A stretch of 64,000 nucleotides of DNA, from assembly GCF_001677475.2 (NCBI RefSeq), contig NZ_CP015229.1; one strand, given 5' to 3'. Below are positions 14,263 through 49,399 of this stretch, one piece after another. The notes beneath the pieces are model-generated. The model was not told the DNA's origin. It saw only the letters and a program-made list of their open reading frames with translations, and searched no databases. The number at the start of each line of letters is the position of its first letter. The first letter of the stretch is position 1. A program made the position numbers and the translations under genes. This stretch comes from Escherichia coli. Lineage in GTDB: Bacteria; Pseudomonadota; Gammaproteobacteria; Enterobacterales; Enterobacteriaceae.

Positions 14263-14439
14263 TGGTTTGCTCCTTTATTGGGCCTTCACTTCCCCCGTAA
14301 GGCCTTTCTTTTTCTTTCGTTGTGCTCTGTGCAGGGTATCGGATGCGACGCTGACACATCTTCTTTGACCTACGGTACGCCGCATCCGGCAATCGGTGAA
14401 CATAGCGACGTCATCACGCAATCCTTTAATCTTCCCTTG

Positions 14440-19676: not shown

Positions 19677-19720
19677 GCCTGCTACAGGCGTTGCAACGCT
19701 ATTCCTGCTGCGACGCCTGT
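19677..19720. terminator. Nested palindromes between the convergent agaI and rsmI stops (putative bidirectional terminator)
   Basis: cgcctg-cta-caggcg, gcgttgcaacgc and outer acaggcgt ... acgcctgt inverted repeats; no strong T-run. Confidence 0.5.
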
Positions 19721-24235: not shown

Positions 24236-24247
24236 CAGCCCCTTGTA

Positions 24248-24336
24248 ATGCCTGATGCGACGCTTGCCGCGTCTTATCAGGCCTACAACGACGCAAACCG
24301 TAGGTCGGATAAGGCGTTTACGCCGCATCCGACATG
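24248..24336. repeat. REP/BIME element (two REP palindromes)
   Basis: gcctgatgcgacgcttgccgcgtcttatcaggcctac and taggtcggataaggcgtttacgccgcatccgacatg, classic E. coli REP sequences between convergent dolP and yraQ. Confidence 0.85.
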
Positions 24337-24338
24337 TT

Positions 24339-25379
24339 TCAGGCCAACAGCGCCAGCCCGCCGACAATCACACCAGACACTGCCACCATCGCCCCTGTCA
24401 GCCATAAGGCTTTCGTCGGGAACGCTTTGCGCAGCATAATCAGTGACGGCAAACTCACGGCCGGGAGCGTCATCAACAATGCCAGCGCCGGAGCGGTTCC
24501 CATGCCTGCCAGCATCATCGTTTGTACAATTGGAATTTCTGCCGCCGTGGGAATGACAAACAAGCACCCTGCTACCGCCATCGCCACCACCCACATCAGG
24601 CTGTTATCGACAGCACCATCGGCATGGGGGAATAACCAGACGCGAGCGGCACCCAACACCAGTACTGCAAGGATATAAACCGGGATCGTACTCCAGAAAA
24701 GCGTCCATAGCGCCCTGCCCCAGCGGATAAAAAATCCGCCCTGCACTTCTGGCATGTCAATTTCGACCGGAGCCTGCGTTTGCGGTGTTTCACGCACCCA
24801 TTTTTGCACCAGCGTCGCAATCAGCAACACCATCACCAACCCCGCCACCAGACGAATCGCCGCCAAGCCCCAGCCGAGGACAAACCCCATAAACACCAGC
24901 GTCGCCGGGTTTAACAACGGATTCCCCATCCAGAATGCCAGCGCACCGCCCATCGATACCTGTTGGCGACGCATTCCCGCCGCGACCGGAGCCGCACAGC
25001 AGGTACACATCATACCCGGCAGCGAAAACAGCGTTCCCAGCAGCGTGCCGCGAAAGCGCGATTGCCCAAGCGTACGCAGCAACCAGTCACGCGGGATCAG
25101 CACCTGAATCAACGAACCGAGGATCACCCCCAGCACCGCCGCTTTCCATACCGCGAGGAAATAGATCATCGCGTAATCCAACGCCGCCTGCCACGGATTA
25201 GCATCCGCCTGCGCAAGGATAGATTTACCGATACTGTGGGTTTCGGCAGCAGTAAACGCTTTGCCGTAGTAAGGTTGCCATTTCACATACCAGAGACCAG
25301 CAATGACAACGAGAAAGAAAAGCGCGGGTTTCCACCACTGAATGGGCGTTGCCGCCTGAGATGAAGACTGACCAGTCAT
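24339..25379 (-). CDS. yraQ: Putative permease (UPF0718), 346 aa
   Basis: 346 aa multi-pass membrane ORF. Confidence 0.88.
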   Translation of the reverse strand: MTGQSSSQAATPIQWWKPALFFLVVIAGLWYVKWQPYYGKAFTAAETHSIGKSILAQADANPWQAALDYAMIYFLAVWKAAVLGVILGSLIQVLIPRDWLLRTLGQSRFRGTLLGTLFSLPGMMCTCCAAPVAAGMRRQQVSMGGALAFWMGNPLLNPATLVFMGFVLGWGLAAIRLVAGLVMVLLIATLVQKWVRETPQTQAPVEIDMPEVQGGFFIRWGRALWTLFWSTIPVYILAVLVLGAARVWLFPHADGAVDNSLMWVVAMAVAGCLFVIPTAAEIPIVQTMMLAGMGTAPALALLMTLPAVSLPSLIMLRKAFPTKALWLTGAMVAVSGVIVGGLALLA

Positions 25380-31704: not shown

Positions 31705-31812
31705 AACGCGGGAAGCCTTATCCGAGATGGCAACGCTGTCCTACGTAGGCCTGATAAGCGAAGCGCATCAGGCATTGTGTAGGCAGCAGAAATGTCGGAT
31801 AAGGCACCGCTG
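31705..31812. repeat. REP/BIME element
   Basis: gcctgataagcgaagcgcatcaggc plus flanking REP-like palindromes (ggaagccttatccgagatgg ... gtcggataaggcaccgc) between convergent yhbW and mtr. Confidence 0.8.
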
Positions 31813-38409: not shown

Positions 38410-38611
38410 TGTAATATCCTTTCTCTTTCTTAGACAGTACCTTACGGCACTGGTGTTAATACCCGATCTTCTGCGCATCCTCGCGACTAATGACAACCCT
38501 AACCCAGCTCTATGTGGGTAAAGCCTCTCATTAGCCGCGCGAACCTCTGCAACGGAAGATCATTCATAGCAACAATACATTAGTTTCCAGTGAATTGCTG
38601 CCGTCAGCTTG

Positions 38612-38635
38612 AAAAAAGGGGCCACTCAGGCCCCC
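38612..38635 (-). terminator. rpsO intrinsic terminator
   Basis: Minus strand: ggggcc-tgagt-ggcccc hairpin followed by tttttt, 20 nt after the rpsO stop. Confidence 0.8.
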
Positions 38636-38655
38636 TTTTCTGAAACTCGCAAGAA

Positions 38656-39021
<366 letters not shown>

Positions 39022-39073: not shown

Positions 39074-40018
39074 TTACGCCGGGTATTCAACCACCAGGCG
39101 ACGAGGCGCAACGCGGCCTTCATCGTCAATTTCGCCCATACCGATAAATTTGCCGTTCTCACCTTCCGTGACGCGAACCAGTCCTTCCAGCGGCGCACCG
39201 GATGTACGAACCGGGTTACCATTTTTGAAGTAAACAGAAGACGTTAACGGAAGATTCACCACCGGATAGTCCGAAGCTGGACTGTCCATTGGCATCAGTA
39301 ATGGATCAAGTAACTCCGCAGCCGGAATATCCTGCTGTTCAGCTTGTTCGACCAGTTCACGCAGATGTTCCAGGGTCACCATCCGTTCAACTGGATATTT
39401 ACTTACCGCCAGACGACGCAGGTAAATAACATGCGCGCCACAACCGAGTTTTTCACCCAGGTCGTCAATGATAGTGCGGATATAAGTACCTTTTGAGCAG
39501 TGAATTTCCAGCTCCAGCTCATTGCCTTCATGGCGAATAAACAGCAATTCATAAACGGTAATCGGACGCGCTTCACGCGGAACTTCAATGCCCTGACGCG
39601 CGTATTCGTACAGTTTTTTGCCCTGATATTTCAGTGCTGAATACATCGAAGGGATCTGTTCGATATCGCCACGGAAGGTATCCAGCGCCGCCGCCAGTTG
39701 CTCTGCACTAAAGGTTACCGGACGTTCTTCAACGATTTGTCCATCGGCATCGGAAGTATCGGTACGCTGTCCAAGACGCGCAATCACCCGATAGCGTTTG
39801 TCGGAGTCCAGCAGATACTGGGAAAACTTCGTCGCTTCCCCGAGGCAAATCGGCAACATGCCAGTTGCCAGCGGGTCCAGCGCGCCGGTGTGTCCGGCAC
39901 GGTTGGCGTTATATATACGTTTCACTTTTTGCAGCGCATCGTTGCTGGACATACCCTGCGGTTTATCCAGCAACAAAACGCCGTTAATGTCGCGACCGCG
40001 ACGACGAGGACGACTCAT
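39074..40018 (-). CDS. truB: tRNA pseudouridine-55 synthase, 314 aa
   Basis: 314 aa; ATG overlaps the rbfA stop by 1 nt. Confidence 0.95.
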
Positions 40019-40419
40019 TAGTCCTCCTTGCTGTCGTCCGGGTTAACACGACGTTCTTCGTCATGTTTGACCACGCTGGTCACCAGGTTTGACATGCGCA
40101 TCCCTTCAACCAGCGAGTTGTCGTAGAAGAAGGTCAGTTCCGGCACGATACGCAGGCGCATCGCTTTCCCCAGCAGGCTGCGGATGAAACCAGAAGCTTC
40201 CTGCAACGCTTTGATGCCCGCTTTAACCGCGTCTTCATCTTTGTCGTTGAGGAATGTCACATATACTTTGGCATACGCCAGGTCGCGAGACATTTCGACA
40301 CCGGAAACGGTGGTCATCATGCCCAGGCGAGGATCTTTAATTTCACGCTGCAGGATGAGAGCGATCTCTTTTTGCATTTCCTGCGCTACGCGCTGCGGGC
40401 GACCAAATTCTTTCGCCAT
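40018..40419 (-). CDS. rbfA: Ribosome-binding factor A, 133 aa
   Basis: Start at internal ATG ([33 protein letters not shown]) preceded by an aggag SD. Confidence 0.95.
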
Positions 40420-40435
40420 AATAAATTCTCCTGAC

Positions 40436-40461
40436 AAAAAAGGGGCTGTTAGCCCCTTTTT
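40436..40461 (-). terminator. Hairpin and T-run immediately upstream of the rbfA SD (putative partial terminator/attenuator after infB)
   Basis: Minus strand: aggggctaacagcccct followed by ttttt, then gtcaggagaatttatt ATG. Confidence 0.55.
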
Positions 40462-40494
40462 AAAATTAATTTCAGGTGGAAGGGCTGTTCACGT

Positions 40495-40572
40495 TGGCCT
40501 GATAAGACGCGCCAGCGTCGCATCAGGCAATCCATGCCGGATGCGGCGTAAACGCCTTATCCCGCATGGAAC
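40495..40572. repeat. REP/BIME element between infB and rbfA
   Basis: gcctgataagacgcgccagcgtcgcatcaggc and tgccggatgcggcgtaaacgccttatcccgcatgg. Confidence 0.85.
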
Positions 40573-40582
40573 CCTAAAAACC

Positions 40583-43255
40583 TTAAGCGATGGTACGTTG
40601 GATTTCGATGATTTCGAATACTTCGATCACATCGCCAGTGCGGACGTCGTTGTAGTTCTTAACGCCGATACCACATTCCATACCGTTACGGACTTCGTTA
40701 ACGTCATCTTTGAAGCGGCGCAGGGACTCCAGCTCGCCTTCGTAGATAACCACGTTGTCGCGCAGAACGCGGATCGGGTTGTGACGTTTAACCACACCTT
40801 CGGTAACCATACAACCTGCGATGGCACCAAATTTCGGTGATTTGAATACGTCACGAACTTCCGCCAGACCGATAATCTGTTGTTTCAGTTCCGGAGACAG
40901 CATACCGCTCATTGCCGCTTTCACTTCGTCGATCAGGTTATAGATGACGGAGTAGTAACGCAGATCCAGGCTTTCCGCTTCAATCACTTTACGTGCAGAG
41001 GCATCAGCACGTACGTTGAAGCCAACCAGGATGGCGTTGGACGCCGCAGCCAGGGTAGCGTCGGTTTCGGTGATACCACCTACGCCAGAACCGATGATCT
41101 TCACTTTAACTTCGTCAGTAGACAGTTTCAGCAAGGAGTCGGAGATAGCTTCCACAGAACCCTGTACGTCTGCCTTCAGGACGATATTCACTTCGTGAAC
41201 TTCGCCTTCGGTCATGTTGGCGAACATGTTCTCGAGTTTAGATTTCTGCTGACGCGCCAGTTTAACTTCGCGGAATTTACCCTGACGATAGAGTGCAACT
41301 TCACGCGCTTTCTTCTCGTCACGTACAACGGTAACTTCATCACCCGCAGCCGGAACGCCGGACAGGCCGAGGATTTCCACCGGAATGGACGGACCCGCTT
41401 CCAGCACTTCCTGACCCAGTTCGTTACGCATCGCACGAACACGACCGTATTCGAAGCCACACAGAACGATATCGCCCTTGTGCAGAGTACCTTCACGTAC
41501 CAGAACGGTAGCAACCGGACCACGACCTTTATCGAGGAAGGATTCGATAACCGCACCGCTCGCCATGCCTTTACGTACCGCTTTCAGTTCCAGAACTTCC
41601 GCCTGCAGCAGGATAGCGTCCAGCAGCTCATCGATACCAGTACCCGCTTTCGCAGACACATGTACGAACTGGCTTTCACCGCCCCACTCTTCCGGCAGGA
41701 TGCCGTACTGGGAGAGTTCGTTCTTAACGCGATCCGGATCGGCTTCTGGTTTATCGATCTTGTTCACTGCAACGACCACCGGAACCTGCGCCGCTTTCGC
41801 GTGCTGGATTGCTTCGATGGTCTGCGGCATTACGCCGTCGTCGGCAGCAACAACCAGGACTACGATGTCCGTTGCCTGCGCACCACGAGCACGCATTGAA
41901 GTAAACGCGGCGTGCCCCGGGGTGTCCAGGAAGGTGATCATGCCGTTTTCAGTTTCAACGTGGTATGCACCAATGTGCTGGGTAATGCCGCCCGCTTCGC
42001 CAGAGGCCACTTTCGTTGAACGAATGTAGTCCAGCAGAGAGGTTTTACCGTGGTCAACGTGACCCATGATGGTCACAACCGGCGCGCGCGGTTCAGCCGC
42101 TGCCCCCGTGTCACGGTCGCTCATTACCGCTTCTTCCAGCTCGTTTTCACGACGCAGGATAACTTTGTGGCCCATCTCTTCAGCAACCAGCTGTGCGGTT
42201 TCCTGATCGATAACCTGGTTGATGGTTGCCATTGCGCCCAGTTTCATCATCGCTTTGATGACCTGAGAGCCTTTAACAGCCATCTTGTTCGCCAGTTCGC
42301 CAACGGTGATGGTTTCGCCGATCACAACGTCACGGTTAACGGCCTGAGCAGGCTTCTGGAAGCCTTGCTGCAGCGAAGAACCTTTACGTTTTCCGCCTTT
42401 ACCGCCACGTACTGCTGCGCGTGCTTCTTCACGATCAGCTTTTGATTCAGCGTGTTTGTTGCCTTTCTTCGGACGCGCAGCTTTCGCGTTACGACCACGG
42501 CCACGGCCGCCTTCGACTTCACGATCGCTTTCGTCTTCTGCCTGGCGAGCATGTTGAGAAGTAGTGACGTGATAATCGCTGGAATCTTCAGTCGGTTCCG
42601 CGTTATCAGTCCATTTGTTTTCTTCCGCCATACGACGTGCTTCTTCAGCAACGCGACGTGCTTCTTCTTCGAGTTTACGACGCGCTTCTTCTTCGGCTTT
42701 ACGCTTGAGCTCTGCAGCTTCCTGCTCACGGCGGGCTTTTTCAGCCTGGGCGTTTTTAGTCATATCGTCTTGTTGATTGCTCACTTTGTCTTTTTCCGCA
42801 GCTTCACGTTTCGCTTGTTCAGCAGCTTCACGCTTAGCTTGTTCTGCGGCCTCACGTTCAGCTTTTTGTTGCGCCTCGCGTTTAGCCGATTCTTCTGCCT
42901 CACGACGGGCTTGCTCTTCCGCTTCACGCTGCGCTTGCTCTTCCGCTGCAAGGCGTTCAGCCTCTTGCGGATCGCGTTTCACAAAGGTGCGTTTCTTGCG
43001 GACTTCGATTTGTACCGATTTGCTTTTTCCACCGGTACCAGGAATGTTAAGGGTGCTGCGTGTTTTACGTTGCAGCGTCAATTTGTCCGGGCCTGAATTT
43101 TTCTGATTCAGGTGGTCAATCAAAGTCTGTTTCTCTTGTGCGGACACAGAGTCGTCAGCAGACTTCCGGATACCTGCATCAGCAAATTGCTGTACCAGGC
43201 GTTCCACGGAGGTCTGTCGCTCTGCGGCCAGCGTTTTAATCGTTACATCTGTCAT
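40583..43255 (-). CDS. infB: Translation initiation factor IF-2, 890 aa
   Basis: 890 aa; Glu/Ala/Arg/Lys-rich N-terminal region; GTPase G-motifs (GHVDHGKT); in-frame internal GTG (codon 158) and ATG (codon 165). Confidence 0.97.
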
Positions 43256-45263: not shown

Positions 45264-45284
45264 TAAAAAAAGGGCCTAAAGCCC
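45264..45284 (-). terminator. Hairpin and T-run directly upstream of rimP
   Basis: Minus strand: gggctttaggccc followed by ttttttt. Confidence 0.55.
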
Positions 45285-45305
45285 AGTTATTCTGTAGTCA
45301 GATAA

Positions 45306-45328
45306 CAAAAAACCCCGATAAATCGGGG
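45306..45328 (-). terminator. Intrinsic terminator downstream of metY
   Basis: Minus strand: ccccgatttatcgggg followed by ttttttg. Confidence 0.65.
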
Positions 45329-45453
45329 CTTTATATAACTGAACCCTATAACCGCAACTGCGGTCTGGAGCACTTTCCAGAAGGATTTTTTCAAATCCCA
45401 CTACGAAGGCCGAAGTCTTCACAGTATATTTGAAAAAGGACTCTAAGGGAAAG

Positions 45454-45530
<77 letters not shown>

Positions 45531-49312: not shown

Positions 49313-49399
49313 TGGTACCGAGGACGGGACTTGAACCCGTAAGCCCTATTGGGCACTACCACCTCAAGGTAGCGTGTCTACCAATTCCACCACCTCGGC
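49313..49399 (-). tRNA. leuU: tRNA-Leu, 87 nt, long variable arm
   Basis: Reverse complement reads GCCGAGGTGGTGGAATTGGTAGACACGCTACCTTGAGGTGGTAGTGCCCAATAGGGCTTACGGGTTCAAGTCCCGTCCTCGGTACCA. Confidence 0.93.

Follow-up and report, generated by a model that had tools for sequence, protein, structure and literature searches.

REP and BIME elements belong to the bacterial repeats that have been known for the longest time, and several described systems bear on the pair analyzed here, which lies between infB and rbfA in a 64,000-nucleotide stretch of Escherichia coli DNA (contig NZ_CP015229.1; the whole stretch is called the window below). The closest are the naRNA units of REP325, between yjdM and yjdN (Rfam RF02564). 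There, as at infB-rbfA, the transcript runs through a Z2 hairpin, then a short linker, then a Y hairpin, and both loci are flanked by two genes that share a strand and a transcription unit. REP325, however, comprises six units in an array (12 hairpins), whereas the infB-rbfA site has just one unit, with its linker shorter by 6 nt, and is followed, unlike REP325, by a canonical intrinsic terminator. Rho dependence of REP325 was found only with the full array (Harris preprint, bioRxiv 10.64898/2026.03.23.713779). A second comparison is with intercistronic stabilizers such as that of malE-malF, in which, as Newbury et al. 1987 and Khemici & Carpousis 2004 are summarized in PMC6061677, the REPs follow the better-expressed upstream gene, as they do here, and are proposed to block 3'-5' exonucleases, an effect that would extend to the infB-rbfA pair by analogy; in contrast to those stabilizers, the infB-rbfA locus has a terminator, t3, between the REPs and the downstream gene.

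Two further REP arrangements are similar in some respects. BIME-1/RIB/RIP elements (Y, an L motif with an IHF site, and Z1) likewise consist of two inverted REP units at a gene 3' end, and an example is found nearby in MG1655, between dacB and obgE, with Z and Y about 35 nt apart; their linker is about 34 nt, however, compared with 3 to 7 nt at infB-rbfA, where the IHF consensus is also lacking. Stop-proximal REPs that stall ribosomes, such as that of nrdAB (Liang, Rudd & Deutscher 2015, as reported in PMC12306157), are matched by the infB-rbfA pair in that its first hairpin begins 13 nt past the stop codon, inside the 15-nt limit given there, but this spacing is allele-specific and is not conserved. 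Lastly, ERIC/IRU elements and other enterobacterial REP classes are also small structured noncoding repeats and also occur between the infB stop and t3, although they belong to sequence families unrelated to the infB-rbfA pair.

Genes in the window were named from the annotation of matching E. coli records, which gave the order rsmI ... dolP, yraQ ... yhbW, mtr, deaD, nlpI, pnp, rpsO, truB, rbfA, infB, nusA, rimP, metY, argG ..., with infB through pnp on the minus strand. A 401-nt query around the REP pair was matched over at least 80% of its length in 5,422 of 5,426 complete E. coli genomes, with strain MEI003 at 100%. The infB-rbfA spacer (40420-40582) is 163 nt long, identical in length to that of MG1655, and precedes an RbfA of 133 aa (translated from 40419). 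Along the mRNA, the infB stop is followed after 13 nt by the Z2 hairpin and, past a further 3 nt, by the Y hairpin; 35 nt and an A5 tract separate the latter from the terminator hairpin, which precedes the Shine-Dalgarno sequence and rbfA, the ribosome-binding site and start reading GUC-AGGAG-AAUUUAUU-AUG (Table 1). The original prediction had placed the REPs within a cotranscribed unit, and this agrees with published northern blots, on which a joint transcript of about 6.7 kb with rimP, nusA, infB and rbfA was seen (PMC6511841). In the same study, infB mRNA was present at about twice the level of rbfA, its half-life of 2.1 min at 37°C was called typical, and cold shock was described as inducing this gene cluster (PMC6511841). 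A promoter/terminator scanner returned 0 promoters and 0 terminators on positions 39900 to 41000, so an internal rbfA promoter is unsupported.

Table 1. Positions in the window of the infB-rbfA features and of the other REP sites.
Feature	Position	Strand	Basis or remark
infB ORF	40583-43255	-	890 aa; annotated infB in matching E. coli records
infB stop codon TAA (UAA in mRNA)	40583-40585	-	
Spacer, infB stop to first paired base of REP hairpin, 13 nt	40570-40582	-	Sequence and MFE fold
Z2-type REP hairpin CCAUGCGGGAUAAGGCG-UUUA-CGCCGCAUCCGGCAUGG	40532-40569	-	Inverted repeat; MFE hairpin, -26.5 kcal/mol; aligns with naRNA4 hairpin 1
Y-type REP hairpin GCCUGAUGCGACGCUGGCGCGUCUUAUCAGGC	40497-40528	-	Regex match, inverted repeat, naRNA4 hairpin 2; predicted -21.4 kcal/mol
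A/U-rich spacer tract GAAAUUAAUUUU, mostly unpaired	40462-40496	-	MFE and centroid structures
Intrinsic-terminator-like hairpin A5-GGGGCU-AAC-AGCCCC-U6	40436-40461	-	Perfect 11-nt inverted repeat; -15.2 kcal/mol
rbfA Shine-Dalgarno AGGAG (40432-40428) and start codon ATG (40419-40417)	40417-40432	-	
dolP-yraQ Y-type REP, 14 nt past dolP stop (REP240)	24250-24286	+	
dolP-yraQ Z-type REP (GTAGGTCGGATAAGGCGTTTACGCCGCATCCGACA), a few nt from yraQ stop (24339-24341)	24300-24334	-	
yhbW-mtr short Y-like REP gcctgataagcgaagcgcatcaggc (REP241)	31749-31773	-	
yhbW-mtr degenerate REP fragments	~31714-31725 and ~31792-31805		
agaA-agaS degenerate REP site (REP239)	14339-14420	+	nhmmer E = 0.004 and 0.04

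At 40495-40572, where REP palindromes had been predicted, two REP units were indeed found on the minus strand (40497-40569), and the site is a single Z2-Y REP pair, that is, one BIME-2/naRNA-like unit. The two units are inverted and joined by the short linker AUU, 3 nt (7 nt in the naRNA4 model alignment), and the whole naRNA4 model was aligned. The match to RF02564 covers 40496-40566 on the minus strand at full length (model positions 1 to 77) with 77.2 bits and E = 6e-12, the gathering score being 59.5 bits; the model was built from Z2-linker-Y units of REP325, whose naRNA4 source units have been described as Y-l-Z2 (PMC4550694). An inverted-repeat search gave arms that are 84 to 86% complementary, and a query spanning the site matched a median of 12 places per E. 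coli genome by megablast. The pair is extragenic, at the 3' end of infB. The fold of the entire spacer has a predicted energy of -73.3 kcal/mol (z = -5.3 against shuffles) and contains the two REP hairpins and the terminator hairpin; in the MFE structure, AGCCC (40480-40484) pairs with GGGUU (40570-40574), closing a junction around both REP hairpins. The predicted folds also make the A/U-rich tract within 40462-40496 a candidate endonuclease entry site. A BIME-1/RIB/RIP reading of the pair was rejected because the linker is too short and the IHF consensus WATCAANNNNTTR was absent from both strands here, as it was at the dolP-yraQ and yhbW-mtr REP sites; no L motif was seen at the infB-rbfA pair. 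REP and BIME elements are long known and catalogued, so the pair is nothing new in kind; an rbfA-proximal terminator has been published as well.

The spacer holds a second structure, which the original prediction had overlooked. The hairpin at 40436-40461 has the form of an intrinsic terminator, in sequence and in the predicted folds, with a GC-rich stem-loop directly followed by U6, and it is positioned 35 nt and the A5 tract downstream of the REP pair and upstream of the rbfA Shine-Dalgarno sequence. A terminator t3 has been described "just upstream of rbfA", where a rimP-nusA-infB transcript of about 4.8 kb likely ends (Brandi et al. 2019, PMC6511841), and from its position and form the hairpin is taken here to be t3, its termination activity being predicted. 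A simple consensus terminator scanner did not call it on positions 39900 to 41000; the probable reason is that pairing between the upstream A5 and the U tract adds to the stem length that is counted. Because t3 is within the spacer, the step in RNA-seq coverage across infB-rbfA that had been proposed as a check is confounded, and an expression step between the two genes is not creditable to the REPs unless these are separated from t3.

The outcome of a formal REP consensus scan, the other check that had been proposed, depended on how the pattern was worded. No match in the window was obtained with a rigid fixed-loop Stern-type pattern allowing up to 3 mismatches, since REP loop lengths differ, whereas the loop-tolerant consensus GCCKGATR-N6-30-YTTATCMSG, used as a regex, picked out 4 units in the window but none in any of 300 dinucleotide-preserving shuffles, and the covariance model scored above its cutoff, so that the REP assignment was borne out by the latter two. 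An nhmmer profile was made from the four clear units and served solely to seek further copies, the E-values of those units being circular; a weak match at 62686-62718 had no palindrome and was dismissed as a chance half-site. The three REP sites that had been listed are all present, but the list was incomplete, a degenerate fourth site in the agaA-agaS spacer having been missed. At 24248-24336 there is a clean pair (24250-24334), with Y and Z tail to tail in the 103-nt spacer between the convergent genes dolP and yraQ. The span claimed at 31705-31812 takes up nearly all of the 117-nt spacer between the convergent genes yhbW and mtr; one short Y-like REP was found in it, but it is not a cluster, the rest being mere fragments. 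The naRNA4 model scored 33 to 38 bits at dolP-yraQ, under the cutoff, and had no match at yhbW-mtr, and queries for the two sites matched medians of 9 and 2 places per E. coli genome, respectively.

These neighboring sites are catalogued. They were matched to REP239, REP240 and REP241 of MG1655 through coordinates in the supplement of bioRxiv 10.64898/2026.03.23.713779; REP241 (29 bp, MG1655 3304505-3304533) corresponds to about 31746-31774 of the window. REP243 is located beyond the infB-rbfA pair in MG1655 and is absent from the window, and the infB-rbfA pair is, by elimination, probably the catalogued REP242. A literature search for an infB REP or "REP242" returned no relevant literature. 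In the Harris 2026 supplement, the Y hairpin at dolP-yraQ is given as a convergent-transcription 3'-end hairpin (row 263), and REP239 overlaps an in vitro Rho-binding fragment. The REP239 remnants (tcggatgcgacgctgacacatcttctttgacctac ... gtacgccgcatccggca) are located within the aga operon, in the agaA/nagA-agaS spacer. The dolP-yraQ allele of the window (24236-24338) is rare: 23 records were at least 99% identical, while 5,244 records were 90 to 95% identical, with listed examples spanning 221 nt against the 211-nt query, and query coverage was below 80% in about 14% of genomes. In the dacB-obgE spacer of the window (57636-57679) there is only a terminator hairpin (aaaccccggcacatggccggggttt), whereas MG1655 (3330397-3330581) has about 100 bp more, comprising a BIME with Z, about 35 nt and Y (REP243), and this REP is thus a presence/absence polymorphism between strains.

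Within E. coli, the infB-rbfA pair is nearly always present. At least 80% of a 181-nt query, 40% of which is the REP pair, was covered in 5413 of 5426 complete genomes, and two main alleles were distinguished. The minority allele, in about 13% of genomes (such as those of strains ST3 and E300010), retains the canonical tail of each unit (GUAGGCCGG... for Z2, ...CAGGCCUAC for Y); these tails are kept in most other genera that have a Z2-Y pair, and E. albertii lacks them. The derived allele, found in the window, in K-12 and in about 81% of genomes, has a Z2 unit reading CCAUGCGGG...CCGGCAUGG, with CCAU in place of GUAG, and a Y tail of CAAC in place of CUAC. The GTAG/CTAC tetranucleotide is the recognition and cleavage tag of RAYT and is needed for mobility. 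Both tags are lost in the majority allele, which is therefore probably immobile. Several changes on both arms of the derived allele lengthen its Z2 stem, with a predicted energy of -26.5 kcal/mol against -21.5 kcal/mol in the GTAG allele, and its first paired base is 13 nt past the infB stop, compared with about 17 nt in the GTAG allele. A common E. coli allele that is tagless yet appears to form a longer hairpin is a modest new observation. In E. coli strain E69, a species-representative genome (locus positions 869-1030), the infB 3' end and rbfA are only about 95 to 96% identical to those of the window, and one arm of the Z2 unit has degenerated (GGCGTTTGAGTCACTTCCGGC), so retention of the stop-proximal hairpin does not extend to every Escherichia lineage.

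With an RbfA probe, the locus was retrieved from 80 species-representative genomes, and the spacer was delimited in 79 of them. A GC-rich hairpin at the t3 position was present in all 79 Enterobacteriaceae species, and so was a GGAG ribosome-binding site, with GGAGA invariant across 66 distinct sequences; covariation within the terminator was weak (double-sided change in 2 of 11 pairs), there being too little variation to inform. The stretch between the infB stop and the terminator hairpin, which we refer to as the slot, ranged from 62 to 289 nt. It was without a repeat in 14 species (Cedecea, Buttiauxella, Atlantibacter, Shimwellia and others), and in the other 65 it was occupied by varying repeats, namely, other REP classes, ERIC-like elements, or the Z2-Y pair. 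The commonest occupant was the REP class GTAGGCCGGGTAAGCGAAGCGCCACCCGGCA, which differs from the E. coli Z2-Y pair; about 16 species additionally had ERIC-like elements, and about 8 had a Z2-Y pair (E. coli, E. albertii, Pseudocitrobacter, some Citrobacter, and Kluyvera georgiana). Since some species are repeat-free and others have different repeats, no particular element is required. The hairpin is constant while the slot contents vary, which argues that the terminator is the ancient feature and the REP pair one among several interchangeable occupants of a slot that is permissive, or even favored. A terminator that seems to have stayed constant while the slot was filled by different repeat families is a modest new comparative observation. 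Recent horizontal transfer was considered as a cause of the patchy Z2-Y distribution and is not supported, because the infB and rbfA flanks of the non-Escherichia carriers have an unremarkable identity of about 84 to 91% to those of E. coli. In Pseudocitrobacter, the spacer looks to match the E. coli GTAG allele to about the degree seen for the coding flanks (about 90%, with the flanks measured and the spacer judged by eye).

Some details of the slot and its border were also recorded. ERIC-like elements (core ...CACCCCGGTCACATAGTTATCTATGCTCCCGGGGATT...) were found in Salmonella enterica diarizonae, Raoultella, Citrobacter braakii/youngae, Phytobacter and others, and their cores agree at 13 to 16 of 22 positions with the ERIC primer sequences. 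In Intestinirhabdus and R. ornithinolytica the element contains an additional insertion of about 70 nt, and shorter forms in several Citrobacter resemble internally deleted copies. The rbfA ribosome-binding site reads GUCAGGAG in E. coli and E. albertii and GUCUGGAG in nearly all other species, none of which shares the A. In the predicted fold, the A of GUCAGGAG gives a perfect 5-bp CCUGA/UCAGG pairing (40469-40473 with 40430-40434) across the base of t3, partly over the Shine-Dalgarno sequence; the helix is short and the pairing may therefore be due to chance.

The reading that we judge somewhat more probable than its negation, by analogy with the characterized systems, is that of a fixed, immobilized Z2-Y pair whose RNA hairpins would form a 3'-exonuclease barrier for infB transcripts. 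The element would have originated as a mobile RAYT-dependent repeat that has since become fixed in E. coli. Both hairpins would lie near the 3' end of transcripts that stop at t3 and of read-through transcripts that are cut in the A/U-rich tract; there they would impede 3'-to-5' exonucleases, and the infB part of the message would outlast the rbfA part, with a modest added contribution to pausing or attenuation possible. An mRNA-stabilizing or exonuclease-stalling role, which had been part of the original prediction, is a textbook REP function and plausibly fits the two predicted stable hairpins; it is only partly supported, since the adjacent terminator had been overlooked and confounds the RNA-seq check. 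The barrier reading is favored by the retention of the pair in nearly all E. coli genomes, by the longer and stronger Z2 stem of the tagless allele, by the apparent similarity of the Pseudocitrobacter spacer, and by the joint transcription of infB with rbfA, the 4.8-kb species likely ending at t3 and the twofold excess of infB mRNA (PMC6511841). REPs resist exonuclease digestion (PMC6061677). REP325 stabilizes the message of the upstream gene, yjdM, and reduces transcription into yjdN by attenuation, and tandem gene pairs with an intervening REP have higher upstream/downstream expression ratios genome-wide; in the same preprint, REP effects are context-dependent, with no general half-life benefit (bioRxiv 10.64898/2026.03.23.713779). 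Against a strong REP effect, the hairpin of t3 might alone suffice to protect 3' ends and to account for the excess of infB over rbfA, and the ordinary half-life of infB mRNA (2.1 min) also counts against it. The Adams et al. 3'-end supplements contain neither infB/rbfA nor nearby coordinates, and the hairpin table of the Harris supplement, in the part available, consists essentially of convergent-transcription sites.

It is unlikely, though to be taken seriously, that the pair has no selected effect at all and is a selfish REP doublet that settled in a permissive spot after a stop and before a terminator, persisting by drift and by hitchhiking with its essential neighbors. Such a history is favored by the comparison of the 79 species, in which a slot of 62 to 289 nt holds unrelated repeats or none beside a constant terminator and Shine-Dalgarno sequence, by the strain variability of other REP sites in the window (REP243 absent, the dolP-yraQ allele rare), and by the decay of both GTAG tags. 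It accords less well with the near-universal presence of the pair in E. coli, with changes in the derived allele that lengthen rather than degrade the Z2 stem on both arms, and with a spacer that appears about as conserved as the coding flanks across genera (the flanks measured, the spacer judged by eye). A more elaborate proposal is that the whole stretch from the infB stop to t3 is itself a selected hairpin slot, in which exapted selfish repeats of unrelated families (two REP classes, ERIC-like elements or Z2-Y BIMEs) would tune the output of IF2 versus RbfA/TruB. Exaptation would be suggested by the majority E. coli allele, in which both mobility tags are gone while the stop-proximal hairpin is longer and only 13 nt from the stop; the tuning might act by blocking exonucleases or by stalling coupled to termination, and might matter in cold shock. 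We regard this as speculative and improbable.

The remaining readings place the effect at other steps. The position of the Z2 stem, 13 nt past the infB stop in the window and K-12 allele, recalls the report that REPs at most 15 nt from an upstream stop stall ribosomes, which was proposed for 260 of 496 REPs (Liang et al. 2015, as described in PMC12306157), and a hairpin less than 15 nt from the stop might thus cause mRNA cleavage, tmRNA tagging and less IF2. The stem of the ancestral GTAG allele is about 17 nt from the stop, however, other species differ widely in how far the first hairpin lies from the stop, and IF2 is an abundant essential protein, all of which makes such a control of translation termination decidedly improbable. 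Even less credit is given to transcription attenuation, in which the REP pair would pause RNA polymerase or recruit Rho and so set rbfA-truB transcription alongside or instead of t3. BIMEs have been linked with attenuation (Espeli et al. 2001, as cited in PMC6061677), REP325 is partly Rho-dependent (Harris preprint, bioRxiv 10.64898/2026.03.23.713779), and 78 REPs, the neighbors REP241 and REP239 among them, bind Rho in vitro (Harris 2026 supplement); but REP242 is absent among the listed rows of the Rho-binding table, REP fragments of two to four hairpins had no bicyclomycin sensitivity (Harris preprint, bioRxiv 10.64898/2026.03.23.713779), and the conserved feature is the canonical intrinsic terminator 35 nt and an A5 tract downstream. 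An action on the DNA or nucleoid is hardly credible; the pair would then serve as a gyrase (BIME-2) or HU/naRNA-type site, either relieving supercoiling in the wake of strong transcription of the operon or organizing the chromosome. A single pair rather than an array is present, with no IHF consensus or L motif, and REP325 and naRNA4 gave no measurable nucleoid compaction, with REP-REP contacts unseen (bioRxiv 10.64898/2026.03.23.713779). The Z2-Y unit does score above the naRNA4 cutoff, and it has been proposed that gyrase cleaves at REPs, while HU-naRNA4 has been linked with nucleoid condensation (PMC4550694).

Beyond correct annotation, the infB-rbfA pair is of little wider relevance. If REPs do tune operon polarity, the slot would offer a convenient natural series for testing it in an essential translation-factor operon.

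Elsewhere in the window, Rfam matches above the gathering score were those expected: RNase P RNA (548-924), SraG (38468-38639), the S15 leader (38869-38983), the rimP leader (45265-45365), the greA leader (56052-56173), and tRNAs at 45457-45530 and 49316-49399, the metY and leuU positions. Between agaS and rbfA, the offset between window and MG1655 coordinates changes by 5,395 bp, so that MG1655 has extra DNA somewhere between the two genes (perhaps near window position 19700, the agaI-rsmI junction) that is missing from the window strain. The aga cluster of the window is intact, agaE and agaF included.
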